Below the pieces are notes generated by a model. That model was not told the origin of the DNA. It ran no database searches and worked only from the letters and a program-made list of their open reading frames with translations. Of a stretch of 64,000 nucleotides of DNA, positions 3,954 through 51,752 are shown one piece after another; position 1 is the first letter of the stretch; every line of letters starts with the position of its first letter. This DNA is from an uncultured bacterium (GTDB taxonomy: Bacteria > Patescibacteriota > Minisyncoccia > Phycocordibacterales > PALSA-1337), in contig CAWKEA010000005.1 in assembly GCA_963848635.1 (NCBI GenBank), positions 111,341 through 175,340 of the forward strand, written 5' to 3'. The position numbers were made by a program, and so were the translations under genes.

Positions 3954-4967
3954 TTATTTTTTCGCTATGATAGTCTTTTTATACACATCCAAATGCTCCA
4001 TAGCGATGCCGGTTCCTTTCGCGACGCAGAACAGCGCATCCTCGGCGAGGACCGCCTTGACTCCCGTCCGACGGTAGACAAGCTCGGGAAAATTGCGGAG
4101 CATGGACGAGCCGCCCGTCATGATGATGCCATGGTCGATGATGTCTGAAGCGAGCTCGGGCGGCGTTTCCTGAAGGACGTCCTTCATGGCTTTTATCATG
4201 TCGCGCAGTTCTTTGACGATGGCTTTTGTGATCTCGTTCGTGCGCAATTCGACGGAACGCGGCAGACCAGTGATGAAATCGCGGCCTTTGACCGTCATGA
4301 CGAGCTCCTCATCGAGGGGCACGGCAGAGCCGATCTTGATCTTTATGTCTTCGGCCATCTGATCGCCGATACCGAGGTTGTGGGTCTTTTTTATATAATC
4401 AGCTATAGCCGCATCGATCTTATTGCCTGCTACTTTGACCGAAGCAGACGAAACAATGCCGCCAAGCGAGATGACGGCCACGTCGGTCGTTCCGCCGCCG
4501 ATATCAACGACCATATGCCCGCGAGCTTCATGGATAGGAATGCCCGCGCCGATGGCAGCAAGAACTGGTTCCTTGACAACATAGGCATTGCGAGCGCCAG
4601 CGCGCAGAGCGGCCTCGACAACGGCGCGACGCTCTGTCGATGTGATCGATGCCGGTACAGATACGATGACGTCCGGTTTCCAAATATTCCATTTTCCGAG
4701 AGCCTTGTCGATAAAATAGCGGAGCATCGCTTCTGTTACGCGATAATCCGCGATGACGCCGTCACGCATCGGCTTGTAAGCGATGATGGTGTCAGGCGTG
4801 CGTCCGACCATTTCCTTTGCTTCTATGCCGACAGCGAGGACTTTTTTGTCGATTTGGGAAATAGCAACGACTGAAGGCTCGTTCAAAACGATGCCTTTGC
4901 CGGGCACAAAAACGAGCGTATTGGCCGTGCCAAGGTCGATACCGAGCTGTTTAGAGAAGAAAGCCAT
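3954..4967 (-). CDS. mreB: Rod shape-determining protein MreB, actin homolog (paralog 1)
   Basis: GIDLGTANTLVFV phosphate-1 motif, DIGGGTTD, actin-fold conservation throughout; likely real start MAFFSKQLGIDLG at 4967 rather than the track start 5063. Confidence 0.85.
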   Translation of the reverse strand: MAFFSKQLGIDLGTANTLVFVPGKGIVLNEPSVVAISQIDKKVLAVGIEAKEMVGRTPDTIIAYKPMRDGVIADYRVTEAMLRYFIDKALGKWNIWKPDVIVSVPASITSTERRAVVEAALRAGARNAYVVKEPVLAAIGAGIPIHEARGHMVVDIGGGTTDVAVISLGGIVSSASVKVAGNKIDAAIADYIKKTHNLGIGDQMAEDIKIKIGSAVPLDEELVMTVKGRDFITGLPRSVELRTNEITKAIVKELRDMIKAMKDVLQETPPELASDIIDHGIIMTGGSSMLRNFPELVYRRTGVKAVLAEDALFCVAKGTGIAMEHLDVYKKTIIAKK

Positions 4968-5040
4968 TTGTGGATGGACTATATCACAAAATAGCCATGA
5001 ATCAAAGAATATAATCGATAAAAAATAAAAGAAAAAGCCC

Positions 5041-9696: not shown

Positions 9697-9788
9697 ATCT
9701 ATCTTCTCTTTCTTTTTGTATTTTGTGTATTTTATTTTCAAAGACGACATACAGCAGGTATATCGTCGGGCTAGCAACTAGAACTTAA

Positions 9789-15353: not shown

Positions 15354-15866
15354 TCATCTCGTCACAGAAATAGGACCTTTACTGTCGGGAAGCTCGCTTT
15401 GTGCGTCAACCGTTATATGGCCGTTCGCGTCTTTGAGTATCGTATATCCTGTATCGTATGTTGAAGGGTCTGTGTAAGAGCCCTTTGTCGGATCATATGG
15501 CAGTGACGAGATATAATTCGGCACAAGGCAGGCCGCCAGATCGCCGCCATTCACGTCGCCGCTTTTTATCTCGGTAAAATTAGGGTTGATTCCAAGAATG
15601 GAAGCAGTGCCGTTACATGTCAGAACGCCTTGGTGCTCAGCCATATTTTCATCGACTCCGTTCAATATCGCGGCTATGTTAGCCATGCGTTGCGTATCTC
15701 TGGCCAATGCGAACTGCCGGGATGGATTGATGGCTACGATGACTACGGCCGCCAAAATAGCGATGATGCCGATGACGACGAGCAGTTCGATCAACGTGAA
15801 GCCTCGAGCGAATGTCCGCTGATTGAATACGCCCTTGATCGACTTGGCATATGCTTTGCCGGCCAT
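15354..15866 (-). CDS. Type IV pilin-like protein (prepilin with N-terminal methylation motif)
   Basis: ...RG FTLIELLVVIGIIAILAAVV cleavage and methylation motif; the track ORF extends to 15947, likely start M at 15866. Confidence 0.8.
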   Translation of the reverse strand: MAGKAYAKSIKGVFNQRTFARGFTLIELLVVIGIIAILAAVVIVAINPSRQFALARDTQRMANIAAILNGVDENMAEHQGVLTCNGTASILGINPNFTEIKSGDVNGGDLAACLVPNYISSLPYDPTKGSYTDPSTYDTGYTILKDANGHITVDAQSELPDSKGPISVTR

Positions 15867-16261
15867 GCGGCGGACAGACGTATCCTCCGGCCTATATTTC
15901 GACTGACGAGAGCCTTTGTTAATGCTGGCGAAATATTTTTTCTTCATATTTTTATCAAATAATTACCATTAATGACAAAATTATACGCGCCAGACATTAA
16001 GAAAAGTTAAAATAAATATAAAGAATATTTTAACTTCAATAATTATTTTAATTTCATGATGTTTAACCAGCCGAGTGAGTGAATCCTTTTCTAAAAAGCA
16101 CCAAAAAAATCCGTATAATCATACGATTATGAGATGTTTTCTACGAGGTTTAGCCACAAAATTGATCATTTTTGGACTCAATCTTAGAATTATACGACTC
16201 AAAAACACGTGATTTTAAAAATGACATACCCCTTGTTTCAAAGATTGACACTAAATGCGAC

Positions 16262-20792: not shown

Positions 20793-22472
20793 TCACAGCT
20801 CCCTCGGCTCTGGAACGACGATCTTTGCCTTCCATATCTTTGAATGGAGCGTGCGCCAGACCTCTGATATCTCGGGGTTTTTCATCATGATGAAAATACC
20901 TGCGCAGACCGCAATGCCGAATAATCCAGCCAGAAATCCTTGCATGAAGACGTTGAATGTCGTAGTCAAGGGGAAGAATATATTAAAGAATCGCAGGCCG
21001 AGGTATGCGGCGTAGCCGCCTATCACGGCTGACGATAGGCTTTGGAAAAAGACGTCGCCGAGGCGCCGGGAAAAGCCCGGGAAGTCACGATCGAAGATAT
21101 ACCAATGGAGAAAGGTGTTAACGATCGCACCGATGGAAAAAGCCAAGGGCAACATGAGCACTCCGACGCCGACCTGGTCGGAGACCTTGAGGAGCGATTG
21201 GATGAAATACTGGAACATGGGCCATGCATAATATGCTTTGTCGAGAAAATACCCCATACCCGCGATGAGCAGTGCGGAAAATATATTGACGATGAGCGGC
21301 TTCCTCGTCAGGCCTTGGGAATAATACGCGCGCACATAGAGGAGGATAAGCCCCTGGCCGACGATGGAGATGATAAAGAGGGCGAGGGCGGCGGCGGTAA
21401 GGCGCGTGTCGTTCCAGTCGAAAGCTCCCGCACCGAGGATGACACGGACGATATTGGCTCGCAGGACGATGAAGAGCGCCGTGACTGGCAGTGACCAAAA
21501 TATGATATGGCGCGCCGAAGTGGCCATCTCTGTGAGGAATTCTTCTCGTTTGCCGCTTGAAAATAATTTTGACAGCGTCGGAAATGCGGCCGAAGAATAG
21601 CTGACGCCGATGATGGTGAGCGGCACTGACTCGATAGAATTAGCGAAATTGAAGATAGAAATCGATCCTCCTGCCATGAACGACGCCAATGCTATGAGAA
21701 AAAACGAGGCCAGCTGGTTAGCTGAAAGGGTCAACGTCCGCGGCAAAGACAAGAAGAACACCTTGCGTATGCTGGGCCAATCTACCGCCCAGGTGAAATG
21801 CGGGAAGACCCGCGTCCGCACGATGAATGGGATCTGCACTGCCATATGCATGCACGCACCGAGGGCGACGCCCCAGACTAATCCAGCGAGACCAAGATAG
21901 CGGTAAAAGACCACCGCACCGATTATCATGCCGAGATTGTAGAGGATCGGCGACAATGAATAGATCAGGAAGCGCCGATTCATCTGCGTCACGCTCGAAA
22001 AAAAATTCGATAGGCCAAGAAAGAACGGCGAAAGCAACATGATGCGCATCGCGGCGACGAGAGACGAAAAATCGGCGTCATGGGCAAAGCCTGGCAGAAA
22101 CGTCCGCACAAGCCATGGCGCCAGGATATAGGCGACGATGGAGACGACGACGATAGCCGCAAAAAAGACAGTGAAGACTGAATCGATGAATTTCTTGCCC
22201 TTTTCATCGCTCTCGTCGAAATATCCGATCAGAAAAGGGATAAGCACAGAGGCAGAGACGGTCGAGGCGATAGTGGTATAGATGAGGTCTGGTATGCGGA
22301 AAGCCGCATAAAAGAGGTCAAGGGTGTGCCCCGCTCCGAACATGAATGCCAGTATCCGATCGCCGACCAGGCCAAGGACTTGCGAGGCAAGAGCAAAAAA
22401 AGCGAGAAGATATGCGGCCTCATGAAGGCCGCGTATCTCACTGCCGAGGGCCGCAAAGAACTTTTTGACCAT
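20793..22472 (-). CDS. murJ: Lipid II flippase MurJ (MviN)
   Basis: Fourteen-TM MOP-family profile; N-terminal RGLHEAAYLLAFFALASQVLGLVGDRILAFMFGAG...DLFYAAFRIPDL. Confidence 0.8.
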   Translation of the reverse strand: MVKKFFAALGSEIRGLHEAAYLLAFFALASQVLGLVGDRILAFMFGAGHTLDLFYAAFRIPDLIYTTIASTVSASVLIPFLIGYFDESDEKGKKFIDSVFTVFFAAIVVVSIVAYILAPWLVRTFLPGFAHDADFSSLVAAMRIMLLSPFFLGLSNFFSSVTQMNRRFLIYSLSPILYNLGMIIGAVVFYRYLGLAGLVWGVALGACMHMAVQIPFIVRTRVFPHFTWAVDWPSIRKVFFLSLPRTLTLSANQLASFFLIALASFMAGGSISIFNFANSIESVPLTIIGVSYSSAAFPTLSKLFSSGKREEFLTEMATSARHIIFWSLPVTALFIVLRANIVRVILGAGAFDWNDTRLTAAALALFIISIVGQGLILLYVRAYYSQGLTRKPLIVNIFSALLIAGMGYFLDKAYYAWPMFQYFIQSLLKVSDQVGVGVLMLPLAFSIGAIVNTFLHWYIFDRDFPGFSRRLGDVFFQSLSSAVIGGYAAYLGLRFFNIFFPLTTTFNVFMQGFLAGLFGIAVCAGIFIMMKNPEISEVWRTLHSKIWKAKIVVPEPREL

Positions 22473-22477: not shown

Positions 22478-24934
22478 TTATTGTCCTGCCGTGTTGCTTG
22501 TGCCTGAGTCGGCAGAAGTCTTGCCTTCGACCGGTGGAGAAGTCCTTTTTTCTGGGGTCGAGACAGGGGGAGCCTGATTTGCAAACGCGCTCTTGCCGCC
22601 CTTTAGGTTCGACAGGATGCCAGCGACGTCCGCATTGTCTGGATTTGTCTTTGACAATTGCTCGAATTGCGCGATCGCATCGGCGTTATCCCCTGTCTTT
22701 GAATATGAGAGCCCGAGGAAATATTGGGCATTAGCATAATTAGGACTCAAGGAGACAGCTTGGGAGAGAGACGCGACGGCGTCGGAATACTCTCCGGCAT
22801 TGTATTGCAAAAGGCCGAGCTCGAAGAATGCTGTCGGATCATTTGGAGTCAATTGGGTAGCGAATTTGACCGAAGTGATAGCGTCTGCAGTATTGCCTTC
22901 TGCCACTTGGATCTGCGACAAAAGATATACCGCATCAGTGTAATTATTTTTGAGCTGAAGGGCTCGAACCAATATAGCTTGTCGCATCGCTGTATTTGCT
23001 CTGTCCGGCGGCTGTTTGGGCAAGGTCGAGGTACAGCAAAGGGCTATACGGATTATACTTGAGAGCATTGGTATACGCGGTGACGGCCGCGGCATAGGCG
23101 CCATTGATCTGGAGCCCCGCAGCTATTGAGTAGACCTGCGCTTCGGACAGATAATTATGGTAATCCGATGGATCGTGCTTGACCGCATCGACTGCGTTAG
23201 CGGCTCCTTCATTGACGAGAGCCCCTATCTGCTGGATTTGTGCCTGTGTCGGCTTTGCGCTCGAGCCAGCGGAATATATCGTTGTGCGATCATGCGCACC
23301 GCTGTGAGATCCGTTTGAGCCAAGGCCTGATCGTATATGTCTTCATGGTCCAAAGCCAAAGCTTTGTAAAAGTAGTTATGGGCTTTGGACATGCCAACAG
23401 ACGACAATGGAGAAGCGGAAATGTCAGCGACCCCGGCGGTAAAGTATCCGAAAGCAGTAGCCCTCATCGCATATACGACGAAGCCCGCGATCAGCACAAG
23501 AAGGATGATCGCTCCAAAAGACCTACCATAGAGCCTCGTTTTCCCTTCCCACTTGGAAGGAAGCGCGACCAGCCTCATATCTCCGGACCGAATGCATGAA
23601 CCGAAAAAGATTCCAATAAAGACGAATGTCAGAAAGAAATTGACGTACGAAGGGACATATACCAGATCGATATAAAGCAGGAATGCTCCCGCAAAGAACG
23701 ATGAGAAAGAGATAAAGGGCAAGAATATGCCGTTTCCCTGATCATCTGATGATTTGTCCGCCCGGACAGCAGGGCCTTTGCGGAGTACCTTCACGCCTGT
23801 ACGGATAAAGTAGACGTACAAGAGGCATAGGAGCACAATGCCTGACAAGCCGAGGGAAAGGGCTGTGGTCAGAACGATGCTTGAGCCATTTGAGAATTCA
23901 GTGGACCACAATTGGGTCAGATTTATAGCCAAAGGCTTGTACAGGAGATATTCCTTGGCGAACGTGTTTGGACCAGAGCCGAGAATAGGAGACACGTTCA
24001 TGATGCTTGTGCCGATGTTGAGAGTCGTCTGCCACGACAGAGGCGTCTCAGAATATCCTACCTTCAAAGCGCTGGCGAGAGGGTTCGTGACGCTGTTTCC
24101 TTGCCATACCATAAATACTGCCACGATGAAGACGATGCCGGAAAAGACTGGCAGGCGTTTGCTGACCGGAATGTCCTTTTTCTCATTGAAAAGCCTATGG
24201 AAAATGAGGGCAAGGAAAACCAGGGCGATGCCGAGCCAAACCGACGGCAAGCCAGCAATCAAGAGAAAGAAGAATGGGACTGCGAACAAAACGCCTGCCG
24301 CGCATTTGACGGCCTTGCTCATCGGAAAATACAGGAACGCAATGCCGAGAAGTATAAATATGATGCCGGAGAATATACCTAGGTTGTACCACGTGCCGAG
24401 GGGCGTAGTAGCGGCTCCGATAAATAGGCCGAAAGAGAGCGCCGATGGGTCTGCCAGCTTTATGATCTGGAAAAGGGTTACAACCAAGAAGCTAGAGAAT
24501 AGCGCTGTATATATCGTTAGCGCGCGAGACGAGCTACGCGAGGAATAAAGAGCCGTCAAGAGGAGAGCAATGCCCAGTATGATCATGAAGGCCGCTGTCG
24601 GATATTCGAATCCTTGGCCGAAAAAATATTTCAGGAAATCACCGCTCCAAGCGGAGGATAGCGCGAGAAGGACAACAAAAATGACGCTGATATACGATAT
24701 TGGATTGGCTATCCATTCAAAGGACTTTATCTTCCAGCGGGAGATAGCATACAGTATCGCCGAAACAAGAACGCCGAATGCAAGGAGATAGCCTTTGACT
24801 GCATTCTGTTCCAAATATGGAATAGGAATGACCACGATTGGTGCAAGAAAGATAAGAGCTGTCAAGATGCCATAGCCCCAAGATTCGAGCTTCGAGCTTG
24901 GTACTGCTTGGGCTGGTATTTGTTCTGGATTCAT
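22478..24934 (-). pseudogene. O-antigen-ligase-like (Wzy_C-type) polytopic membrane protein with a long C-terminal TPR domain, interrupted by at least two frameshifts (about 23250 and 22950)
   Basis: A 569-aa 12-TM ORF ends in a TPR-like tail; TPR-like reading continues in a second frame (..AYAAAVTAYTNALKYNPYSPLLYLDLAQTAAGQSKYSDAT) and then in the 22478-23104 ORF frame. Confidence 0.55.
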
Positions 24935-35843: not shown

Positions 35844-36782
35844 ATGTTAAGATTGAATCAGAAACACCGAACAGCTTTCATAAACAAACAAAGGCTGAAC
35901 AGAGTCTTTGACAACAAAAAAAGGAATCATATGAGTCTATTATTCGCATTGCTTGGCATGGTCATAGGGGCGTTGTACACATGGTGTATATGCCCCACCA
36001 ACTACATAGCCATGGTTATCGGCGCGGTCATCTTCGGCACGATAACATTGTGCCTGTATAAAATGCAGCGCACCAGGATTTGGTTTGCTTTGTTCGTACG
36101 GAGACATCCTTGGACATTGCCTGTATTTTTTTTCCTGGTCTTGCTCGTGCCCATAGTCAGTTTGGGAATAAGCCACCGGCACAATGGAGGAAGCGACAAG
36201 AACCAGCCAACTGTCCTGTCGAAAACCGAGACCAATGATCTCTCGGTCGCAGTTGCGTCGACGAATGTCACCGCCATCGCGGCTCCCCTGCCGAAAAACT
36301 CGATCATCATAAATATCGGCGGCGGAAGCATCGGATCGGCCATCGCGACGATCATGCAGAACCGTCAGCTATCGCAACCCCAACAGTTACAACAGCCGCA
36401 ACCGCCGACCGTGATCATCGTGACGAACACGGTCATCTACAGGACGGAAGAAAAAGCCGCCTTGGACGACCAACAATCCGCGATACCGTTGCCGGAGCCT
36501 AATCCGAACGGGTATGTTGAGAGAGAATACGTGATCCCGCCGAACGGATATCAGACCTTCTCAACTTCACCAAATACAGTCGTCTGCGCCTACTGCCCAT
36601 ATGCTGACAGCGACCGCGACGCGATCAGACTGTACTACGACGGCAAACCAGCGTCAGAATATCCTGAATACAGGAATTATGGTTCAGTCCAGGGGTTCAG
36701 CAGGTATGGGTTTCAAAACCAGGGCCAGCGGAGTATCCCGATAAGGATCAGGACCTCGTCTTCCGGACAAAGAAGGCGATGA
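35844..36782 (+). CDS. Hypothetical membrane protein with a Q/P-rich linker (the start may be the internal Met near 35931)
   Basis: Two or three TM helices then a low-complexity region. Confidence 0.45.
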   Translation: MLRLNQKHRTAFINKQRLNRVFDNKKRNHMSLLFALLGMVIGALYTWCICPTNYIAMVIGAVIFGTITLCLYKMQRTRIWFALFVRRHPWTLPVFFFLVLLVPIVSLGISHRHNGGSDKNQPTVLSKTETNDLSVAVASTNVTAIAAPLPKNSIIINIGGGSIGSAIATIMQNRQLSQPQQLQQPQPPTVIIVTNTVIYRTEEKAALDDQQSAIPLPEPNPNGYVEREYVIPPNGYQTFSTSPNTVVCAYCPYADSDRDAIRLYYDGKPASEYPEYRNYGSVQGFSRYGFQNQGQRSIPIRIRTSSSGQRRR

Positions 36783-36886
36783 TGGTAACAGAATACACAA
36801 AAGAGGGACGCTCGCGCTTCCCTCTTTTTTTCTTGCACCATTCTCTCTTTGCTTGATCTATATCTGTCTTTCTGTATACCGATCGG

Positions 36887-37153
36887 CTACAGCGGCGACG
36901 AGATATTCAGCGTATTCGCGATGAGCCGGATTATTCCATAGGCCCCCAACATGATGAACATGCCGATCGCAGAGTACAGTATATGCATCTGGCCGGTCGC
37001 GCGCCCTTCTGGGCTATCGGCACTTCTTATGAGCTTGTATACTCCCCAGATAAAGTAGACGAAAGCCAGTCCGAACAATAAAAGCAATCCTGGCTCGATT
37101 ATATTCGAAATGATCGGCGCAAGAATGGTTGACAGAGTGGAATTCGAGTTCAT
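36887..37153 (-). CDS. Small two-TM protein, paralog P1 of a five-member family with VirB2/TrbC-like topology
   Basis: Helix, short G/E/K loop, helix, then TxTF-like end, shared with the four upstream genes. Confidence 0.55.
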   Translation of the reverse strand: MNSNSTLSTILAPIISNIIEPGLLLLFGLAFVYFIWGVYKLIRSADSPEGRATGQMHILYSAIGMFIMLGAYGIIRLIANTLNISSPL

Positions 37154-37184
37154 GTGAGGACTATGATGGCGTTCTGCCTACAGG

Positions 37185-37565
37185 CTACTGGATTTGCGGA
37201 ACGGTCGGAATCTCGTTGGCATTGAGACCGTTGTTCGCGGTATTGAATGTCGAAGTCAAAAGATGCACAAGACCCCAGATACAGAGAATGATGGCGAGAC
37301 CGCCGATGCCCCAGAGAGCATTGTTGCGCCATTTCTTTGCGTTTTCGCCTCCGCTATCGACGATCCACACGACGACGCTGACGATGATCCATAGCACAGC
37401 CAGAGCTATCAAGACATCGATTGCTACATCGAACAGATACGTGAGACGTTGAGCCAACGTAGTGGCATCACTGATAGAACTCGGATTGACGCCTGACGGA
37501 GCGATAGACTGGGCAAAAGCGACTGACGGACCAAAAGAAACGAGTGCGATTATGAATTTTTTCAT
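37185..37565 (-). CDS. Secreted two-TM protein, paralog P2 (signal peptide plus C-terminal TM hairpin)
   Basis: MKKFIIALVSFGPSVAFAQ signal peptide; ..LIALAVLWIIVSVVVWIVDSGGENAKKWRNNALWGIGGLAIILCIWGLVHLLTSTF. Confidence 0.6.
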   Translation of the reverse strand: MKKFIIALVSFGPSVAFAQSIAPSGVNPSSISDATTLAQRLTYLFDVAIDVLIALAVLWIIVSVVVWIVDSGGENAKKWRNNALWGIGGLAIILCIWGLVHLLTSTFNTANNGLNANEIPTVPQIQ

Positions 37566-37696
37566 AGTTATTGGTTAATTCGATTAACTGCTCAAGTATA
37601 CCAGATTCAAGAGGTTTCAAGTATTGCGGCTGTGGATTATCGTATGGACGGGTTCGGTGCCGATTTTATTGTACGGATCAGCTGTTAAAGGATTAT

Positions 37697-38134
37697 TTAG
37701 TGAACAGTGATCGTATTGTTCGCGGTCGGCTGAGAGGCGGCGCCAGACGAGCCCGACGACGTGCATGAGGAGGCATTACTGCCGAACATATTGCCGAACG
37801 TCGTAGGCGCGGAATTGTTGAGGCTGAACGTATTCGTCACCAGATTGACGAGGCCCCAGAAGCAGACGATGACGGCGAATCCGATGATCCCCCAAAGGAT
37901 ATATGTCCCGCGCTCCTTGGTCTCTTTTTCAGTAAAGAAATACCGGAAGACATTGAAGATGAAGACGACCATCGCCAGGCCGATGATTATCTTGATGGCG
38001 GTGTTGAAATATCCGAGGGCTGACTGAGATATGGTGCAGAGCGTGACTGTCTGCGCCAAAGCGAACGAAGGGGCAACAGCGAGAGAGATGACTGCTATCG
38101 CTTGGGCGGTCTTTCTTTGAAAAAAATATTTCAT
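37697..38134 (-). CDS. Secreted two-TM protein, paralog P3
   Basis: Signal peptide; ..IIIGLAMVVFIFNVFRYFFTEKETKERGTYILWGIIGFAVIVCFWGLVNLVTNTF. Confidence 0.6.
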   Translation of the reverse strand: MKYFFQRKTAQAIAVISLAVAPSFALAQTVTLCTISQSALGYFNTAIKIIIGLAMVVFIFNVFRYFFTEKETKERGTYILWGIIGFAVIVCFWGLVNLVTNTFSLNNSAPTTFGNMFGSNASSCTSSGSSGAASQPTANNTITVH

Positions 38135-38191
38135 GGTTGTTTTATTATATCGATTTCTATTGTAATGGGCATGCTTTGTTCTGTCCGCGAT

Positions 38192-38599
38192 CTATTGCGT
38201 CGGGAGAAGCCCCGTTTGCACGACCCCGGCCGAAGTCAACGTGCTCTCAATGACCGAGACGATGACTTTTGCCCCGATGAGTATGGCCGTGCCGACCGAA
38301 ACCCATATGAACCAGCTCCATGCTTTATTGATCTCTTCTGGCTTGCCTTGGGCAAATATGAATTTAAAGCCGACATAGACATACATAATGACGGCTATGA
38401 CGGCGCCGATCGGAATGGCGATATTGACCGCGCTTGTGAGAAGCGTAGTGATGCTCGTCGCCTGGAGCGGATTACAGATCGCGGCAGAGCCGGACGAGCA
38501 CGGAACTGATGTCTGTGCGGAGGCGGCGAATGGCGCGCACGTGGCTAGAGCATTCAAAACAAGAGCGCTGACATAGAAAGCTGTGATTATTTTTTTCAT
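38192..38599 (-). CDS. Secreted two-TM protein, paralog P4
   Basis: Signal peptide; ..IPIGAVIAVIMYVYVGFKFIFAQGKPEEINKAWSWFIWVSVGTAILIGAKVIV. Confidence 0.6.
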   Translation of the reverse strand: MKKIITAFYVSALVLNALATCAPFAASAQTSVPCSSGSAAICNPLQATSITTLLTSAVNIAIPIGAVIAVIMYVYVGFKFIFAQGKPEEINKAWSWFIWVSVGTAILIGAKVIVSVIESTLTSAGVVQTGLLPTQ

Positions 38600-38600
38600 A

Positions 38601-39728
38601 TTATTGTCCTAAAAATGTGGTAATGCCTGTCTGATTCGTCGAACTGCCATTCGTGCCGGTCGTGAGCCAGCTGACGATAGTATACACCGAAACCCACGCA
38701 ATGAGCATGATACCGAAACCGATTCCAGCGGCCGTGAAGATGCCGTTCGCCTTGCTACGATTGCCCGGCGTGCCTAATATGTAGAGAACCCCACCATAAG
38801 CGAATAGGACGATCGCTATAGGGATGGCTATGGCGAAAAGCCAATTGACAATAGTACGGCCCTCGATCAAGAGCTCGCTAAAATCACAGGTAGGAAGGCT
38901 ATTGTCCGTATTGTTCGGATTCGAAAGGTCGGTCGCGCCCTTGCATTTGACGAGACCCGTAGGGCCGGTGGCATTTGTGTTCGTGTTCGTGTTTGTGTTC
39001 GCCGATGCTGAAGTATTCGCAGTTCCATTCGTGTTTCCAGAAGTTGAAGGACCTGTGCCGACATTCACAGTAGGAGCGTTGACGATATTTTGGCCGCAAA
39101 AACCTGTGTTTGGGTTATAGGTATAGCCTGACTGGCAGTTTGTAGTGCTGTTCATAGGTAGAGCGCAATATCCAAGAACTGAATTATAGACATAGCCATA
39201 GGAGCAACTATTGTTGCTGGTATTTGAATTTGAAGAAGAAGTGCTTGGGGCAGGGACTATAGTCAAGAGGACCGGAGAATCAGTGACATACGTTTCGAGC
39301 GACGGATTATCGGTCGTATAGTCCAAGATAAGCCCATATGTTCCCTGGTGAGATCCGATACTGCTCGGGTTGATCGCATAGGTCGTAGTGGCTCCGGTCG
39401 TCGGAACTCTCTGGAGAAGGAGCGTGCCGGTAGCGAATGTCGACGGATCGGCCAAATATATCTCAATAGAAGGGTTAGACTGATTTGAAAACGAGGGCAA
39501 GGATCCGACCAGGACATAGCCGCTCTGCCCTATCTGCCATGTCGCCGAATTGTTATTGGTGCCGGTGCCATCGTAGTTGAGCGGATAGAACGGCACCTCT
39601 TGCGCACTGCTCTGGGCGATGTTCTGCGCATAAGCAGTCGACGCGACAGGCGCAGTGGAGATGGCGACGAGCGCAATTGCCGCGACAATGAAATAGCTTG
39701 CTAGAGAGATTTTTCTGATATGTTTCAT
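38601..39728 (-). CDS. Large S/T/N-rich, Cys-containing extracellular protein with the same C-terminal two-TM hairpin (paralog P5); contains an (NT)n repeat
   Basis: Signal peptide, low-complexity ectodomain, C-terminal ..NWLFAIAIPIAIVLFAYGGVLYILGTPGNRSKANGIFTAAGIGFGIMLIAWVSV. Confidence 0.6.
   Translation of the reverse strand: MKHIRKISLASYFIVAAIALVAISTAPVASTAYAQNIAQSSAQEVPFYPLNYDGTGTNNNSATWQIGQSGYVLVGSLPSFSNQSNPSIEIYLADPSTFATGTLLLQRVPTTGATTTYAINPSSIGSHQGTYGLILDYTTDNPSLETYVTDSPVLLTIVPAPSTSSSNSNTSNNSCSYGYVYNSVLGYCALPMNSTTNCQSGYTYNPNTGFCGQNIVNAPTVNVGTGPSTSGNTNGTANTSASANTNTNTNTNATGPTGLVKCKGATDLSNPNNTDNSLPTCDFSELLIEGRTIVNWLFAIAIPIAIVLFAYGGVLYILGTPGNRSKANGIFTAAGIGFGIMLIAWVSVYTIVSWLTTGTNGSSTNQTGITTFLGQ
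38974..39000. repeat. Hexanucleotide microsatellite (ttYgtg) x4-5 inside P5, encoding NTNTNTNTN
   Basis: gcatttgtgttcgtgttcgtgtttgtgttcgcc read directly. Confidence 0.7.
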
Positions 39729-41017
39729 TGGCTTTGCAATGACAGATTATATTGGCCGTCAGCGTCCTGTATCGCTTGATGGACGCTTTTTGATCCGCTT
39801 GTCACCGATTCTACCATAGCTTCAAATATAGCACTCGACTGCGTCGGGTCAATGTCAGCCCACGATCTCGTTATCAATGCGGCATTATAAAAGATAGACA
39901 GATACGGATCGGTCGTACCGGCGGCTATCAGATCGCGGCGCGCGGGCGGCAGATATGTCAAGCTGACGAGCATCGAGAGATTCGAAGGGTCCGTGAGGAC
40001 CTGAATGACGTTATACGTGTTCGTCGGGTTGCTCGAGCTCTTGACGATGGACAAGCCGTATATCGTTCCGTATTCGGTCCTTATGGAACCGTTTTTGACC
40101 TGCGGCAAAGGCGCGGCATCGAAATTGATGTTCGGATTCTTGTTCCGCAGTTGGTTTATCTCCGAGGCGAATCCAAAATAGACAGCCAGATTGCCAGAGA
40201 GGAAATCAGTGTCTGCGGAAGGCAGAGCGCGATTCCATGAATAGTCGGGCGACGTAGGATCGGTGAATTGAGTGAAGAAATCCAATACTTGCGTCGTCGA
40301 ATCCTCGCCTTGAAACGCCGAGCTGTTGCCAAGCGCGCTCGAAATACCGCCAGAAGCGGAAACCGTCACTGGATTGCCGAGCTGAAGCAAAAGACTGCCT
40401 AATATCTCGCGGGCATGCGGAATGTTCGCGAATTCGCCCAGTGCGACGAGGCTTTTCTGTATATTGCTATTCGAGTCTTTTACCGTTAGCTGAGAGACAA
40501 GCCCTGGAAATTGATCCCAGTATTGAGGATAGGTCGCTTGACCGGCATTCGTGAATGAGTCTTTGTTCCAGTACATGACCAAAGGATCGATGAGAATAGG
40601 CAATCCGAGAACGCCTTGAGCGCCGAGATACAATTGCGTCCCGCCGACATACGTATCCATGAACGTCCTCTGTGAAAGGACGTTGTAAGGTATCGGGACT
40701 ATCTTGCCGGCATAGCGTGAAAGGAGGTCTTGCGGAAGGAGAACAGCATCAGGGCCTGAACCAGAAGCCAAAGCATTGATGAACTCCGTATTGAAGCTCG
40801 TCGGATCAACTTGAACGTAATTTATCTGGAGCTGTTGCGCGCGCGCCAGATTGATTTCTTGAACATATTTTTCGATCGCGGCGGCTGGCAAAGTCCCCCA
40901 TATCGTCACCGATGGCAATGTGGTGCTTTGACCGCCTTTGTAGGTGGCAAAGGCGACAGCGCCGCCGATGATAGCGACGATGAATAGTGCAAGGACGATG
41001 ATCTGGAATTTTGTCAT
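39725..41017 (-). CDS. ABC transporter extracellular solute-binding protein (family 1-like) with N-terminal TM anchor
   Basis: Anchor helix followed by a periplasmic-binding-protein-like sequence of about 400 aa. Confidence 0.6.
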   Translation of the reverse strand: MTKFQIIVLALFIVAIIGGAVAFATYKGGQSTTLPSVTIWGTLPAAAIEKYVQEINLARAQQLQINYVQVDPTSFNTEFINALASGSGPDAVLLPQDLLSRYAGKIVPIPYNVLSQRTFMDTYVGGTQLYLGAQGVLGLPILIDPLVMYWNKDSFTNAGQATYPQYWDQFPGLVSQLTVKDSNSNIQKSLVALGEFANIPHAREILGSLLLQLGNPVTVSASGGISSALGNSSAFQGEDSTTQVLDFFTQFTDPTSPDYSWNRALPSADTDFLSGNLAVYFGFASEINQLRNKNPNINFDAAPLPQVKNGSIRTEYGTIYGLSIVKSSSNPTNTYNVIQVLTDPSNLSMLVSLTYLPPARRDLIAAGTTDPYLSIFYNAALITRSWADIDPTQSSAIFEAMVESVTSGSKSVHQAIQDADGQYNLSLQSQ

Positions 41018-41062: not shown

Positions 41063-41590
41063 TTATTGATTTCTGACAAAAACCAGCCCGTAATGATGGT
41101 CTCCTGCTGTAAATGTCTTTTCCAAGGCAAACCCGCTTTTATTGAAAAGATCTTCAGCGACACTGCGAGCAAGACAGTTCTTTGGGCTCAAGGGACTGCC
41201 CGGCAACCAATCAACCACAAGGAGCTTTCCGCTGGGTTTGAGGATGCGCTTTATCTCGAGAGCAAGATTGTCCCGATCTTTCTGCTCTATCTGGAAGAGC
41301 GTATTCGCGAGAACCGCCCTGTCGACCAATCCTTCGCGGAGCTTTGTGCCGCCGATCGTGTCGATCGAGCCCCATATGGCCTCAATATTATGAACTTTCC
41401 CGGCTGAAGCGCTCGATTTGATCAAGCCGAGAAGGTCTTTTTGAACCTCGACGGCGTAGACCCGGCCGCTCGTTCCGACGCGTCGCCCGGCGGCGATCGA
41501 ATAGTACCCCGCTCCGGCGCCCAAGTCGGCTATTTTCATCCCTTCGACAAGCCCAAGCTGTGCCAGATTTTTGTCAGGATCGGAGAACAT
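41063..41590 (-). CDS. Class I SAM-dependent methyltransferase
   Basis: Motif I ADLGAGAGYYS; acidic motif II VYAVEV. Confidence 0.8.
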   Translation of the reverse strand: MFSDPDKNLAQLGLVEGMKIADLGAGAGYYSIAAGRRVGTSGRVYAVEVQKDLLGLIKSSASAGKVHNIEAIWGSIDTIGGTKLREGLVDRAVLANTLFQIEQKDRDNLALEIKRILKPSGKLLVVDWLPGSPLSPKNCLARSVAEDLFNKSGFALEKTFTAGDHHYGLVFVRNQ

Positions 41591-44371: not shown

Positions 44372-45247
44372 TCAGCGGCCTTTCGGAGAAGTCGGAGAAG
44401 TCGTAGAAGTCGACGAGGCGGTCATGACAGAACCGGAAAAAGGCTTGGGCCGTGGAACATTCGTCCCGACGAGCATAAAAAGCGATTGATACGGATTTAT
44501 GCCTTCGCTGAATAATATCCTTTCAAAGGGCTGTTCGGGATTTGAAATGACAGCGTCGACAGCGCCAAACGGCGAAGAAGAAACTGCCGGGATGATCACC
44601 TCGTCACCCATGGATACGCCCGATTCACGGGAGACCGATGCGGAAAAGAATCCGCCGCCTTGCCCGGCCGCCGTCGCCGGTACATGGGCTGAACCGACAA
44701 GGACATCGTAGCTCGTTCCCGGCGAGGAATAAAGCTCGGCCTTTGAAGAATGTGCATCGGCTTCGACGATCTGACCGACGGGGATAGATCCTACAGAATA
44801 TACCGAATCGCCAATTGACACGCCAAGAGTCGAACCGATATCCAAGATGAGATAATCGTAGCCAGAGCCCGGAGGTCTGCGCAGGACATCGGCCAGAACA
44901 AGATCGTTCGTACCGCCAGACCGGCCGAGGAGAGACCTCAGTTCATTTACCTCGTCCAACAAGGCTTTCGAGCTTGATGCTGTGGCTTGGTCCTGTGCAA
45001 GCTGTTCCTGAAGAGCCTGATTCTCTTGCTCTAATTGCGTCTCCGATGTCATGCCGGAAACAGCGGAATCTTTGCCTGACCACAACGGCAAAAAAAGATG
45101 CGAGAAAGCCGAAGAAAGCGTGCGAGGAGATGCTAATTGGATGATCAGAACGATAAGGACGAAGGCAACGGCAAAAGCGATCGGCCGAGAGATCATCCGG
45201 CCGCTCTTCTGCCGACGTGAAAAATTATTTTGGTCGCGCGATCTCAT
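44372..45247 (-). CDS. mreC: Rod shape-determining protein MreC
   Basis: N-terminal TM, coiled coil (QLEQENQALQEQLAQ), beta-rich C-terminal domain; directly downstream of mreB. Confidence 0.8.
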   Translation of the reverse strand: MRSRDQNNFSRRQKSGRMISRPIAFAVAFVLIVLIIQLASPRTLSSAFSHLFLPLWSGKDSAVSGMTSETQLEQENQALQEQLAQDQATASSSKALLDEVNELRSLLGRSGGTNDLVLADVLRRPPGSGYDYLILDIGSTLGVSIGDSVYSVGSIPVGQIVEADAHSSKAELYSSPGTSYDVLVGSAHVPATAAGQGGGFFSASVSRESGVSMGDEVIIPAVSSSPFGAVDAVISNPEQPFERILFSEGINPYQSLFMLVGTNVPRPKPFSGSVMTASSTSTTSPTSPKGR

Positions 45248-46283
45248 CTTCGTTTTGTATGAGGACGTCTTTGTATTTGTCGAGATCCTCGAGGATTATG
45301 CCCGTGCCGCGCGCGATGGCCGTCAATGGGTCGTCAGCGATATGGACGGGGATCTGCAGAGTGTGCGCGATGAGCTCATCAAGTCCTTTTATGAGCGCGC
45401 CGCCGCCGACAAGATATGCTCCGCGGCGCATGACATCGGACAGAATCTCCGGCGGAGTCGTTTCCAGGACTTCTTGGGCCGCCTGCACGAGCACGTCAAT
45501 GCTCGCGCCCATGGCTTCTCGTATATCAGAATCAGTGATGACGACCTCCCGCGGCAAACCAGTGATGAGATCACGACCGCGAATGGGGATCTCGAGCGCC
45601 TCCTTTGGGACGACGGCGCCGACGGCGATCTTTATCTCTTCTGCTGTCTTTTCGCCGATGAGGATCTTGAATTCGTTCCGTATATAGGAAATGATGTCGG
45701 TATTGAGCTTGTCTCCGGCGATCTTGATGTTCTTTGAACGGACGATGCCGCCGAGCGAGATGACGGCAATGTCGGTGGTGCCGCCTCCGATATCGATGAC
45801 CATAGAACCGATAGGCTCATGTATAGGAAGGCGTATGCCGATGGCGCCAGCCATAGGCTCTTCGACGATATAGACTTCACGTGCGCCCGCATTCCTCGTG
45901 GCGTCGCGGACGGCGCGGACCTCGACGTTCGTCACGCCCGAGGGAACTCCAACGACGACGCGCGGGCCGAGCGTTTTCTTTGAGAATTCTTCTGCCTTGC
46001 GCACGAGATACGAGATCATCTCTTCAGTTATCTCGAAATCAGAGATGACGCCGTCGACCAAGGGACGGACCGCTTTTATATGCGCCGGAGTGCGGCCGAG
46101 CATGTCTTTTGCTTCCCTGCCTACGGCTACGACACGGCCGGTCTTTTCATTGACGGCGACGACCGAAGGCTCATTGACGACGATTCCATGGCCCGCCAAA
46201 TACACGAGGGTATTGGCAGTGCCGAGGTCTATGCCTATATCATTGGAAAAACGGCCGTATATTTTTTGAAGGAAATCATTCAT
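45225..46283 (-). CDS. mreB: Rod shape-determining protein MreB (paralog 2, head of the mreBCD-mrdA operon)
   Basis: IGIDLGTANTLVYL, DIGGGTTDIAVISLGG; start MNDFLQKIYG at 46283. Confidence 0.9.
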   Translation of the reverse strand: MNDFLQKIYGRFSNDIGIDLGTANTLVYLAGHGIVVNEPSVVAVNEKTGRVVAVGREAKDMLGRTPAHIKAVRPLVDGVISDFEITEEMISYLVRKAEEFSKKTLGPRVVVGVPSGVTNVEVRAVRDATRNAGAREVYIVEEPMAGAIGIRLPIHEPIGSMVIDIGGGTTDIAVISLGGIVRSKNIKIAGDKLNTDIISYIRNEFKILIGEKTAEEIKIAVGAVVPKEALEIPIRGRDLITGLPREVVITDSDIREAMGASIDVLVQAAQEVLETTPPEILSDVMRRGAYLVGGGALIKGLDELIAHTLQIPVHIADDPLTAIARGTGIILEDLDKYKDVLIQNEDEIARPK

Positions 46284-46371
46284 GAGTGAAAGGTAGCTGT
46301 ATCCTATCACCAGTCCTGAAAATGGCAAATTTTCGATGCGTTCACAGCCGGCAATCATGCACGCCGACCCG

Positions 46372-46968
46372 TTATCCTGCATTAAAAACGCTCATGGCCT
46401 TTTCTCGGCCTTCCTTTACGATCATCTCGATCGCCTCGGAGGATTTTTTTGCCGCTTTTTTGATCTCCTTGATCTCATCGTCTTTGTATTTTCCTAGAAT
46501 GAATTTGAGGACCTTTTCATCGCCGTGCGGGACTTTGGCGTTTCCCTTGGCGTTTTCGGCGGCCGTGCCGATGCGGATGCGGATGAAGCCTTCGGTCCCG
46601 AGCGCTTTGATGATAGATTCGAGGCCGTTATGTCCGCCAGAGCTTCTGTTGAAAGAGATCTTGATGCGGCCGATCGGCAGTTGGAAATCATCATATATGA
46701 CGACCAGCTTTTCGGCCGATTTCTTGCTTTTGACGAGACGGGCGAGAGCCGAACCGCTCTTGTTCATGAATGTCTCCGGCTCGACGAATATGATCTTTTC
46801 CTTGCCGATCTTTCCGTTTGAGACGAGCGCATTGACTTTCTTGTCAAAAGAAAGCTCGTCGGCATCAAACTGCTCCCGAACAGCGTCAAGGACGATACGG
46901 CCCGTATTGTGCCGCGTCATCTCATATTCTTCTCCAGGATTTCCGAGGCCTGCGATTATGTATGGCAT
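46372..46968 (-). CDS. pth: Peptidyl-tRNA hydrolase
   Basis: MPYIIAGLGNPGEEYEMTRHNTG N-terminal signature with catalytic His. Confidence 0.9.
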   Translation of the reverse strand: MPYIIAGLGNPGEEYEMTRHNTGRIVLDAVREQFDADELSFDKKVNALVSNGKIGKEKIIFVEPETFMNKSGSALARLVKSKKSAEKLVVIYDDFQLPIGRIKISFNRSSGGHNGLESIIKALGTEGFIRIRIGTAAENAKGNAKVPHGDEKVLKFILGKYKDDEIKEIKKAAKKSSEAIEMIVKEGREKAMSVFNAG

Positions 46969-48300: not shown

Positions 48301-51300
48301 CTATGCGAGAGGGATATTTGGGCAGACGATATTGATCAACCTTCCTTTTACAAGGATGATCCTTGATGGCGTCCCTCCATTGAGCCATTTTTTGACTGAT
48401 TCGAGCGCCAGTGCGGCGGTTTTGACGGCCTCATCAGAAGCATCGGCACTGACGTCCATTTCAGCCCTGGTTTTGCCGTTTATCTGCACGGCAATCTTGA
48501 TGCTTGACCCGACCAAGAGCGCCGGATCATATGCTGGCCAGGATTGCGCATGGATCGAGCCTTTGTTTCCAAGCACGCTCCAAAGCTCTTCGGTGATATG
48601 CGGCGCGAATGGCGCGAGAAGTTGCAAGAAAATGCCATAATTTTCTTTCGACACGGTTCCTTCGCCTGCAGCAGCTTTCTTGTCCTCCGTAGCTTTAGCG
48701 GAGGAGGATTCAAACTCGTTCAAGAGGATCATGAGAGCCGAGACGGCGGTGTTGAAGCGCATTGATTCGATGTCCTCGGAGACTTTTTTGATCGTTTTGT
48801 GGACAAGGGGGATGAGCTTTGGGTTTTCATTTTTGAGTTTTGCATTTTGAGTTTTGCATTTTTCTTGCAGTTTCCACACACGTTCAAGGAAACGGCGACA
48901 GCCGACGATGCCGTTCTCGTCCCAACTGATCGCCTGATCGAACGGACCCATGAACATCTCGTAGAGGCGCAGTGAATCGGCGCCGACGTTTTTGACGATT
49001 GCGTCGGGATTGATGACATTGCCGCGGGATTTCGACATCTTTTCTCCGCCGGGACCGAGGACGAAACCGTGCGCAGGTGCGCTTTGATATACGGTTCGGA
49101 TGTCGGAACGAGCCCTTGATCAAAGAGGAATTTGTGCCAGAAGCGCGAATAGAGGAGGTGCAAAGTGACGTGTTCCATGCCGCCGTTGTACCAATCGACC
49201 GGCGTCCAATGCTTCAATTTTTTCATATCAGCGAATTTCGTCGCGTTCTTTGGATCTGTATAGCGCAGATAATACCAGCTCGAGCCTGCCCAATTCGGCA
49301 TAGTGTCCGTTTCGCGCTTTGCTTTACCTTTACATTTAGGACATTTTACATTCACCCACTTTGAAATAGCCGCAAGCGGCGATTCGCCTGTTTCGGTCGG
49401 CTTGTAGTTTTTGACCGGCGGCAATTTGACCGGCAAGTCTTTTTCAGGAACCGGCACGATGCCGCATTTTTCGCAGTGAACGACGGGAATCGGCTCGCCC
49501 CAATATCGCTGGCGCGAGAATATCCAATCGCGCAGTTTGAACCTGTTCACCCATTGGCCGCAGGCGTATGCAGTGATCTCTTTCCTTATTTCGGCGCTTT
49601 TCTTGTCATTGAAACTGCCAGAATTTATGAGCAATCCTTCGCCGATGAAAGCGATATCAGTCTCGGAATGCAATCGAGCGAGCCAGAGCGGCAATTCCGA
49701 ATTGACCATCTTGCCGGGGATGAAATCAGCGGGGTCAATCCAGAGTATCTGGTTGCCTTCGCCGTTCTCGTCCGTTATCGGCACCCGCGCGTCGCTCTTC
49801 AATTCAAAGTAAAGGCCTGTGGCGATGGCGATCCTGTTCTCATCCTTGTGCTTGGCGAAATATTCGGCGCGCACCGGAGAGCCGAGCTTCTTCTTGAACT
49901 CGATATCGGTGTAGCCTGTCTCCTCCCTGACTTCCCTTTTTGCCGCTTCCACAAAATCCTCGCCAGCCTCGACACCGCCGATGACGACGGTATCCCAGCC
50001 ATGCTTGTCGTTTCGTATGATCAAATATTTTTTCTTGAGAGGGTCAAAGACGATCGCGTGCACGTTCGTCCGTATCTTGGACGGCTTGTCCGCGCGCGGC
50101 GGGTTCACATGGTCGACGATGCACGGCATTATGGCTTCCTTTATCGGTAAATCATATTTCTTGGCAAAGGCAAGATCACGGTCGTCGTGCGCTGGCACGG
50201 CCATCACGGCGCCGGTGCCGTAATCGGCAAGTACGTAGTCGGCGATGTATACGGGCACTTCTTCGCCGTTAACGGGATTTATCGCTTTGACTCCTTTCAA
50301 TTCGACGCCCATTTTTTCGCGGGTTGCATCGGTGCGTTCGATATCGCTTTCTTTCTTTGTCCTCGTTATATAGATAAGAGCCTCGCTCCTGTTTTTAATC
50401 AAAGGAAGAAAATCGCGGACCAGCGGATGCTCGGGAGCGAGCACGAGATATGTCACGCCGAACAAAGTGTCTGGGCGGGTAGTGAAGACCGTGATCGATG
50501 GCACGACGGCTTTCAATATTTCAGGTTCTTGATCTGCACGAAAATGCTCTCCATTGCTCTTTGTCTCTATGAGGCGAGCTTTCAAATTATTCGAAAGATG
50601 GCGAATATATTCGATTCTGAATTCTTCTTTAAGATCAGAGAGGATCGATATCTTTCCATTGGCCAAGCGTCGAATGAGATCATAATCTATATTCCAAGTA
50701 AAATTCTTCCAGTATGGTCTAGATTCAGCTTTGGGAAAAGAAGGATCGATTGCAGGAGAAACAAGAACAAGCCCAAAGATCGGTTTGTTCAACTTCATCA
50801 ATGCTTTCATCGCAACTACAGAGCCAAGCGAATGAGCGACGATGACGGTATTTTCATCGATCTTGCAATTTTGCAACACATATTCGACTTGTTCCGATTC
50901 TCTTGGATCCTCTGTGTTTGGAAGTTCGGGGATCTCAACTTCGTGACCGCGGCTTTCAAGTTCTGACTTGAGCCAGGCCCGAAAACTTCCTTTGGCGCTT
51001 CCTCTAAAACCATGAAGCAAAATGTATTTTAGTTTTTGCGGGCTCTTGAGTTCAAAGCTTATCTCCGCGCCTTCGCTCTTTCCGATCCAATTCCTCTGTT
51101 GGGCCTTGATCTCCGGCAAGTAATTCACCAGATCGAGGTCTTTGTCGAGGCGGTCGGCATATTTCGTGATGGCGAGCATCCACTGCTCCTTCTCGCGCTT
51201 TTCGACCGGCGTGCCGCAACGCTCGCATTTGCCGTCGACGACTTCCTCGTTGGCAAGGCCGATCAGGTCTTTCGGGCACCAATTGATGGCCATTTTTTTC

Positions 51301-51752
51301 TTGTAAGCGAGGCCATTCTTCAAGAATTGAAGGAAGATCCATTGCGTCCATTTATAGTAGTTCGGATCGGTCGTATTTATCTCGCGCGACCAATCAAAGG
51401 AAAAGCCGAGCGATTTCAATTGCTTGCGAAAAATAGCGGTGTTTTTCTTTGTGACGACGGCTGGCTGTATGCCGGTCTTGATCGCATAGTTCTCTGTCGG
51501 CAAACCAAAGGCATCCCAACCGATTGGATAGAGGACGTTGTAGCCTTCGCGGCGGCGCTTGCGCGAGATGATGTCCATGGCCGTGTTGCTCCTGATGTGC
51601 CCGACATGAAGGCCGTCGCCGGATGGGTATGGAAATTCGATGAGCGAATACCATTTCGGCTTCTTGGACGTGTCGCTCGCGACAAAAGCCTTTTTCTTGT
51701 CCCATTCCTTTTGCCATTTCGGCTCGATTTTTTTGTGGTCGTAGGGTTTCAT
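48301..51752 (-). CDS. leuS: Leucyl-tRNA synthetase with two in-frame inserted domains (alpha/beta-hydrolase at about 50499-51035, NUDIX at about 49659-50123) and an apparent frameshift at about 49069-49082 before the KMSKS motif
   Basis: HIGH-region PYPSGDGLHVGHIR, CP1 editing motifs TTRPDT and GTGAVMAVPAHD, KMSKSRGN in the downstream frame; inserted HGFRGS..VAHSLGS..D..H serine-hydrolase unit and Nudix box GGVEAGEDFVEAAKREVREETG. Confidence 0.85.

Follow-up and report, generated by a model that had tools for sequence, protein, structure and literature searches.

The window analysed here is a stretch of 64,000 nucleotides (nt) from the genome of an uncultured member of the Patescibacteria (assembly GCA_963848635.1, contig CAWKEA010000005.1 of 515,952 bp, positions 111,341 – 175,340 of the forward strand). 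Surrounded by housekeeping genes (gyrA, MreBC, PBP2), it carries a gene for a solute-binding protein (SBP), followed on the same strand by a tandem array of five paralogous genes encoding the pilin-like proteins P5, P4, P3, P2, and P1, in this order of transcription (Table 1). According to the list of open reading frames (ORFs) and the sequence, the TGA stop codon of the SBP gene overlaps the ATG start codon of P5 (ATGA), and the pilin genes are separated by 1 nt (P5/P4), 57 nt (P4/P3), 131 nt (P3/P2), and 31 nt (P2/P1). A terminator-like hairpin, located between the end of P1 and a convergent gene, ends the transcription unit. The ATGA overlap, the 1-nt spacer, the shortness of the other spacers, and this terminator indicate that the SBP gene and the five pilin genes form one operon, which closes after P1. 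A scan for consensus promoters and terminators did not list the hairpin because of its loop of 10 nt, and was uninformative with respect to promoters, as it returned 12 promoter-like sites versus 6.4 expected. The convergent gene matched no Pfam or NCBIfam family and had no homologue in any of the related loci described below; therefore, it does not belong to the conserved unit.

Table 1 Features of the SBP-pilin locus, domains of the position-1 pilin P5, and the nearby ATPase gene (positions in the window)
Feature	Position (nt)	Strand	Residues (aa)	Remarks
Class I S-adenosylmethionine (SAM) methyltransferase	41063-41590	minus	175 aa	Pfam Methyltransf_31/25/11; upstream of SBP
SBP, MalE/carbohydrate type	39725-41017	minus	430 aa	Membrane-anchored; directly upstream of P5
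P5, position-1 pilin	38601-39728	minus	375 aa	Ectodomain and C-terminal hairpin
P5, signal peptide			1-34	Predicted
P5, immunoglobulin (Ig)-like beta-sandwich	39249-39596		~45-160	AlphaFold2 (AF2) confidence score (pLDDT) 70-88
P5, two 14-residue Cys loops	39096-39206		175-211	Small hairpins in AF2 model
P5, S/T/N-rich disordered linker	38955-39089		214-258	Contains (NT)5
P5, Cys-bridged hairpin			262-281	
P5, VirB2-like helix hairpin	38658-38879		284-357	
P4, position-2 pilin	38192-38599	minus	135 aa	Predicted signal peptide, Cys34/Cys42 loop, hairpin
P3, position-3 pilin	37697-38134	minus	145 aa	Predicted signal peptide, hairpin, Ser-rich C-terminal tail
P2, position-4 pilin	37185-37565	minus	126 aa	Predicted signal peptide, hairpin
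P1, last-position pilin	36887-37153	minus	88 aa	Bare two-helix hairpin, no signal peptide
Terminator-like hairpin	36799-36832			AGAGGGA-N10-TCCCTCT, T runs on both strands; read directly from sequence
Convergent gene	35844-36782	plus	312 aa	3' of P1; transmembrane helices, Q/P-rich linker, C-terminal domain
ATPase gene, three ORFs	17475-19268, 16913-17617, 16492-16953	minus		One gene, two frameshifts

Each of the five proteins ends in two strongly hydrophobic segments of 19 residues, separated by a short loop that contains glycine, proline, and charged residues, as found by hydropathy analysis. The second helix is followed by a tail of the [ST]-x-[TW]-[LF] type (nTLn, sTFn, nTFs, sTLt, and sWLt). 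In the AF2 models, the hairpin helices span residues 48 – 82 and 87 – 123 of P4 and residues 284 – 318 and 321 – 357 of P5. An earlier note on this DNA, made from the sequence alone, had described five consecutive minus-strand paralogues with a common C-terminal two-helix module, four of them preceded by a signal peptide. The former was confirmed by the ORF list, hydropathy, and Pfam, and the latter agrees with hydropathy and reading by eye, as P2 to P5 possess an N-terminal hydrophobic segment ending in A-x-A followed by Q (predicted cleavage sites VAFA/Q, FALA/Q, AASA/Q, and TAYA/Q), whereas P1 does not.

All five proteins matched, each independently, the Pfam family PF18895 (T4SS_pilin, the pilin of type IV secretion systems (T4SSs)), with E-values of 6e-5 to 9e-12 and scores of 28.7 (P1), 23.4 (P2), 28.1 (P3), 45.3 (P4), and 28.5 bits (P5). 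Four of them, namely P1, P3, P4, and P5, exceeded the gathering score of this family (26.6 bits). The comparison with PF04956 (TrbC/VirB2; gathering score 27.9 bits) proposed in the earlier note succeeded in part: P4, the most VirB2-like member of the array, passed with 31.6 bits, whereas P3 remained below the cut-off (15.2 bits) and P1, P2, and P5 gave no match. Furthermore, P1 to P4 matched the NCBIfam model NF045849 (Mbov_0395 pilin-like conjugal transfer protein of Mycoplasma integrative and conjugative elements (ICEs)), all below its cut-off; P1 scored 29.3 bits versus a cut-off of 40, the alignment covering model positions 4 – 79 of 80. The pairwise identity among the five modules was 17 – 37%. 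To compare profiles without circularity, database orthologues of P1, P2, P4, and P5 were aligned family by family. The family profiles of P1, P2, and P5 each aligned to that of P4 in hhalign with probabilities of 95.6 – 96.9% and E-values of 1e-8 to 2e-10, the P2 family reaching 96.9% and 2e-10. In addition, an orthologue of P5 is already named 'pilin' by NCBI. P1 to P5 thus belong to the VirB2/T4SS pilin family and show topology-compatible sequence features, so that the conjugative or T4SS pilin-like identity suggested at first is supported at the family level, through PF18895 for all five proteins and PF04956 for P4.

It is very improbable that P1 to P5 are instead unrelated small membrane proteins (holin-like, fragments of transporters, or products of spurious ORFs) whose likeness to pilins is one of hydrophobic composition only. 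Such a resemblance could be imagined, as two-helix hairpins are compositionally simple, the Pfam scores are modest for four of the five proteins (23 – 29 bits), and the P4 model retrieved only generic helical hairpins with Foldseek (ATP synthase subunit c and FadA, best E-value 2.1). However, five independent matches to one family, of which P4 passes the TrbC threshold too, would not be expected from composition, and neither would the low profile-profile E-values between orthologue families, the more than 100 database homologues that carry PF18895, or a synteny kept across about 35 loci. Also, no holin or transporter family came near the Pfam threshold for any of the five proteins, so that no competing family of the kind considered in the earlier note was found.

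The 430-residue protein encoded upstream of the array is a genuine, membrane-anchored SBP_bac_1/SBP_bac_8 protein. It scored 61.4 bits with SBP_bac_1 and 47 bits with SBP_bac_8, and hydropathy placed an N-terminal transmembrane helix at residues 6 – 24. The closest solved structure was 4r9f (MBP1; E-value 1.8e-11), and the nearest solved relatives bind sugars. When an alignment of this SBP was scanned against one genome per GTDB species, 29 loci were retrieved, with SBP identities of 36 – 82% (79 – 82% in close relatives). The related loci and homologues stem from metagenome-assembled genomes (MAGs) named Patescibacteria group, Candidatus Paceibacterota, Parcubacteria, and Zambryskibacteria. 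PF18895-like ORFs followed the SBP gene directly and on the same strand in all 27 species-representative loci with downstream sequence, and 26 of these contained four to eight pilin ORFs, the exception (L022) being cut after the first pilin. The same succession occurred in six metagenome loci (L002, L004, L006, and L036 – L038). Similarly, a BLAST search found an orthologue of the SAM methyltransferase immediately 5' of the SBP gene in 24 related loci, and it was also present in L036 – L038; this gene is usually preceded by gyrA. Hence, methyltransferase, SBP, and pilin array constitute a deeply conserved unit, down to about 36% SBP identity. No permease (BPD_transp_1) or ABC ATPase was found in the operon or its conserved flanks in the related loci with precomputed Pfam annotation, so that the SBP has no obvious canonical partner beside it.

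The order of the pilin genes is conserved as well. In nearly every complete five-gene array compared (L004, L007 – L010, L012 – L016, L018, L020, and L021), in which the SBPs are only about 50% identical, the best matches of P5, P4, P3, P2, and P1 occupied array positions 1, 2, 3, 4, and 5, respectively. In more distant arrays of six to eight genes, the P5 type was almost always first, the P4 type second, and the P1 type usually last; indeed, the last gene was short (78 – 112 aa) and P1-like in most related loci. In close relatives, with an SBP identity of about 80%, the identities were 64 – 84% for P2, 70 – 76% for P1, 63 – 70% for P4, 54 – 59% for P3, and 64 – 78% for the C-terminal module of P5. 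The five paralogues are therefore ancient, positionally conserved orthologues and not a fast-turnover repertoire. Differentiated subunits are thus more plausible than interchangeable variants, and the conservation pattern suggests non-redundant components, for example one major and several minor pilins. The 'diversified repertoire' of the earlier note thus needs to be modified.

It is accordingly unlikely that the five genes provide major pilins that can replace one another so as to vary the surface or its antigens or to switch the host range, as proposed for the VirB2 paralogue arrays of Bartonella and Anaplasma. Variation of this kind has been proposed for Patescibacteria arrays (PMC12102498), and it would agree with the low mutual identity of the five modules and with the hypervariable ectodomain at position 1, which is 37 – 38% identical or absent in close relatives whose SBPs are about 80% identical. 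Yet each position has its own orthologue, in unchanged order, in relatives as distant as about 50% SBP identity, and P1 alone lacks a signal peptide, with a short orthologue of its type last in most related loci. P2 and P1 are conserved nearly as well as the SBP. Moreover, gene conversion would require paralogues much less divergent than these, and neither silent cassettes nor invertible elements were observed.

The ectodomain of P5 has the Cys pairs and the (NT)n tract that had been noticed at first, although its length is about 250 aa (residues ~35 – 283) and not 300 aa. It consists for 42% of S, T, and N, and contains six Cys residues as three pairs (175/188, 198/211, and 262/281); its (NT)5 tract is encoded by a 6-nt repeat at 38977 – 39001. 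The P5 protein was identical in an independent Logan assembly. The hairpin is present in all P5 orthologues, preceded by a Cys-bridged loop (GLVxCxG...RPICDF) and followed by a conserved tail with TTFLGQ at its end; the stretch between signal peptide and Cys-bridged loop is hypervariable. Close orthologues mostly measure 152 – 196 aa, and position-1 proteins range from about 111 to 689 aa over the related loci. An insertion of about 170 aa was carried only by P5 of the window and by two further proteins (P0002 and P0003), which are 42 – 45% identical overall. According to the AF2 model, this rare insertion is an Ig-like sandwich with Cys loops; Foldseek placed the sandwich closest to Ig V-set domains, with weak scores (E-value 7e-4, target TM-scores 0.5 – 0.6). 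An exhaustive HMMER search with the P5 ectodomain among 1.84e9 representative proteins found no full-length homologue beyond these two. The remaining matches concerned the Cys-loop repeat in giant DUF4215/EGF/CBM_14-like proteins and therefore provide no functional label for the ectodomain. In locus L037 (6975-9044, plus strand), from a different Paceibacteria lineage, the position-1 pilin of 689 aa displays fn3/Ig-like repeats before the same Cys loop and a VirB2-like hairpin at residues 613 – 675, which looks like an independent expansion. A variable adhesin-like domain on the extracellular N-terminus of a pilin module would be expected for a host-recognition subunit.

Besides the array, the window contains one gene of T4SS type, which encodes an ATPase 17.6 kb away from it. 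This gene is split over three ORFs by single-base frameshifts, one near 17490 and one between 16955 and 16990. When stitched, the protein counts 924 aa and matches T4SS-DNA_transf (25.2 bits versus a cut-off of 20.1), TraG-D_C (25.9 versus 22), and TrwB_AAD_bind (24.1 versus 20.5), whereas the NCBIfam VirB4 models match its P-loop only (16 – 19 bits versus cut-offs of 590 – 643). It was initially taken for a VirB4-like ATPase, but its matches are with the VirD4/TraG coupling-protein families and with no VirB4 family. No match was found among PDB sequences. The protein lacks an N-terminal transmembrane segment; its N-terminal part of about 500 aa is soluble, without any transmembrane helix or match to a known family. 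Pseudogenization of the ATPase gene was rejected, as the essential leucyl-tRNA synthetase (LeuRS) gene of the window is frameshifted too, which makes assembly indels likelier. Three frameshifts in 64 kb, two in the ATPase gene and one in the LeuRS gene, suggest indels that probably originate from long reads. A similar signature was present in L021, a MAG with a complete chromosome (OY969557.1, 10001-11279 and upstream), in which both the gyrA orthologue and the SBP orthologue are fragmented into several ORFs, and this supports a sequencing-error origin.

The ATPase had also been connected with the array as part of one T4SS-like apparatus, a connection that was not supported. In none of the related loci does a homologue of this VirD4-like ATPase occur less than 10 kb from the array. 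Nearly all Patescibacteria possess type IV coupling protein homologues, about two per genome; these seldom lie close to virB4, and in Southlakia they are dispensable (PMC12102498). For these reasons, the presence of one at 17.6 kb from the array provides weak evidence of a connection. In Paceibacteria, virB4 is mostly located close to dnaA (PMC12102498), a gene that the window does not contain. Among the conserved clusters of downstream neighbours in the related loci, Pfam found no family for c10, c11, c14, c15, c18, and c29, and a Band_7 match for c24, so that no concealed T4SS gene came to light there.

Taken together, the best explanation, with a probability of roughly 60%, is that P1 to P5 are Sec-inserted VirB2-type subunits of a T4SS-driven surface filament or conduit, of which the position-1 subunit would bind the host and the SBP would act at the same interface; polymerization, T4SS dependence, adhesin function, and the role of the SBP are inferred as parts of it. 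Each pilin would be inserted by the Sec system with both termini outside and the basic inter-helix loop in the cytoplasm, P2 to P5 after cleavage at AxA|Q and P1 without a signal peptide. From the resulting membrane pool, a short filament or conduit at the surface may be polymerized, probably driven by an MPF-FATA-like type IV secretion machinery whose genes would lie in another part of the genome. In that case, the array would supply non-redundant major and minor subunits, one per position, the first of which may display its variable ectodomain on the outside or at the tip of the filament and recognize the surface of a host cell. The co-translated SBP may act at the same site, either by capturing a host-derived carbohydrate or as an assembly or docking partner.

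Several results weigh against this explanation. At the level of the family, P2 falls just below the PF18895 cut-off (23.4 versus 26.6 bits), the P4 family profile retrieved no PDB sequence with an E-value below 0.28, and Foldseek retrieved no solved conjugative pilin from the PDB with the P4 model at an E-value of 1e-3 or less, although the latter comparison is uninformative because the hairpin fold is so simple. At the level of the system, no VirB4, VirB6, VirB3, or VirB8 family was detected among the scanned ORFs of the window, and no recognizable T4SS gene was present within 10 kb of the array in about 35 related loci, so that it is family homology that ties the array to a T4SS. In addition, the literature searched does not contain a visualized filament of this pilin family, and coupling to an SBP, universal here, is not a feature of any described T4SS.

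An alternative is an SBP-centred membrane complex independent of any T4SS. The hairpin proteins would remain membrane-embedded and form a hetero-oligomeric platform or pore, which anchors the MalE-type SBP or takes substrate from it. This would be a non-canonical uptake or sensing device, with the pilin homology reflecting ancestry only. Coupling of SBP and array throughout the related loci, including those with an SBP identity of only about 36%, the translational coupling of the SBP to the first hairpin protein, the lack of T4SS genes syntenic with the unit, and the lack of a canonical ABC permease or ATPase beside the SBP in the Pfam-annotated related loci fit such a complex. Nevertheless, it seems doubtful, since the operon lacks an energizing component, a channel of fixed stoichiometry is less compatible with an array size varying from four to eight genes than is a filament with minor subunits, the large and variable Ig/fn3 ectodomains at position 1 look like adhesins, and the family matches concern pilins, no transporter family scoring.

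A more far-reaching form of the filament or conduit explanation is speculative. The SBP-pilin operon of Paceibacteria might encode a self-contained host-interface organelle, T4SS-derived but repurposed for nutrient acquisition instead of export, in which a MalE-type SBP is wired to a VirB2-like filament or conduit. Here, the adhesin-pilin at position 1 would determine which host surface is bound, with the SBP capturing a host-derived carbohydrate or another ligand at the base or tip of the filament. If true, this would offer a concrete handle on what the essential T4SSs and pilins of Patescibacteria do.

Further observations concern other genes of the window. The LeuRS gene (48301-51752, minus strand) is split by a frameshift between 48732 and 49119, and its product contains internal Pfam matches to a serine hydrolase/alpha-beta hydrolase (residues 244 – 371) and to NUDIX (residues 561 – 681). 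The relative L004 possesses an intact LeuRS of 1142 aa that also contains NUDIX, so that these insertions look real. About 0.5 kb downstream of the ATPase gene, the ORF 15354-15947 (minus strand) codes for a protein that resembles type IV pilins and bears the N-terminal methylation motif (N_methyl of Pfam, 30.7 bits); it belongs to a type IV pilus system, distinct from the VirB2-like array. Beside MurJ (20793-22472), the region 22478-24934 (minus strand) encodes a polytopic membrane protein of 569 aa without Pfam match, followed by a TPR protein of 208 aa. The former may be an O-antigen-ligase-like or glycosylation protein and was not identified as VirB6. Two full-length MreB paralogues were found (3954-5063 and 45225-46382, both minus strand), the second together with MreC and PBP2, which is notable for an ultrasmall cell of the Candidate Phyla Radiation (CPR). 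Finally, an uncharacterized protein of 931 aa (6982-9777, minus strand) showed a weak match to DUF3466 only.

Across a broad lineage of Paceibacteria, the array thus comprises pilin subunits whose set and positions are fixed. It always shares a transcript and a translational coupling with the gene of a sugar-type binding protein, and the ectodomain borne by its first subunit, of Ig/fn3 type, changes rapidly. Such regularities speak against antigenic variation as the sole reading of Patescibacteria arrays. The SBP coupling, the fixed order, and the variable first subunit suggest testable roles, namely a host-recognition subunit and a ligand-capture partner, and could help to plan experiments on the role of these essential structures.

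When compared with known systems, the array shares with the TrbC/VirB2 pilins of diderm T4SSs (PF04956; Agrobacterium VirB2 and RP4 TrbC) the AxA cleavage leaving an N-terminal Gln, predicted here, and the two-helix hairpin with a short basic loop, P4 passing the family threshold. Cyclization and a lipid-bound pilus architecture are known for these diderm pilins. The present array differs in that only P4 passes, the host is monoderm, no virB operon is adjacent, and solved pilins give no structural match. The Mbov_0395 family of Mycoplasma ICEs (NF045849) likewise comprises two-helix proteins of about 80 aa without signal peptide from a monoderm MPF-FATA-type system, to which P1 aligns over the full length. 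Here, the scores do not exceed 29.3, with a cut-off of 40, the locus lies outside any ICE, and there is no relaxase or VirB4 nearby. Archaeal Ced/Ted DNA-import pili are reported by Beltran et al. 2023 to be built from VirB2-like subunits. They resemble the present system in a VirB2-like two-helix pilin and a cell without outer membrane, and offer a precedent for a T4SS-type filament used for import; they differ in having the partners CedA and CedB next to the pilin and no SBP. With SBP-dependent ABC carbohydrate importers (MalE, MalF/G, and MalK), the unit has in common a bona fide SBP_bac_1/SBP_bac_8 protein with sugar-binding solved relatives, but five pilin-like hairpin proteins are found where the permease genes normally sit.

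The closest counterparts are the pilin arrays already published for Patescibacteria. Arrays of four to six small signal-peptide proteins related to VirB2 were described for Saccharibacteria in a 2018 preprint (10.1101/258137), and 441 arrays of two to 11 pilin genes, with a mean identity of 25%, were reported in 383 Patescibacteria assemblies by Quinonero-Coronel et al. 2025 (PMC12102498). That screen used PF18895 and PF04956 and defined an array as at least two such genes, in tandem or one gene apart, with a mean identity of about 25%. It would pick up the present array, which consists of five adjacent genes with 17 – 37% identity in a Patescibacteria genome. The pilin array in the T4SS cluster of Southlakia epibionticum is essential (PMC10633639), and a 2025 review highlighted the Patescibacteria systems as unique among monoderm T4SSs (PMC12857230). 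Reviews regard the role of T4SSs and pilin arrays in Patescibacteria as wholly unknown, even though epibiotic growth requires them in the one species tested (PMC11665869, PMC10633639). With these arrays (S. epibionticum ML1 SEML1_0006-0019, TM7x, and the 441 arrays), the present one shares small signal-peptide proteins encoded in tandem on the same strand, the PF18895/PF04956 hairpin, a mutual identity of about 25%, and a monoderm CPR host. Since tandem VirB2-like arrays were thus known for the phylum, the locus is the Paceibacteria version of a published kind and represents no new class. It differs from the published arrays, which were reported to be most abundant in Microgenomatia and Saccharimonadia, in that it lies among housekeeping genes and not in or next to a virB4 cluster, always has an SBP_bac_1 gene before it, and bears a variable ectodomain on its first member. 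The papers and supplement text searched mention neither an SBP beside CPR pilin arrays nor these differences in ectodomain and context. With respect to that literature, the conserved SBP-array unit, the old positional orthologues, and the variable ectodomain of the first pilin are new. The locus is therefore an ordinary though well-preserved example of these arrays, to which it adds, modestly, the SBP coupling, the subunit order, and the adhesin-like first subunit.

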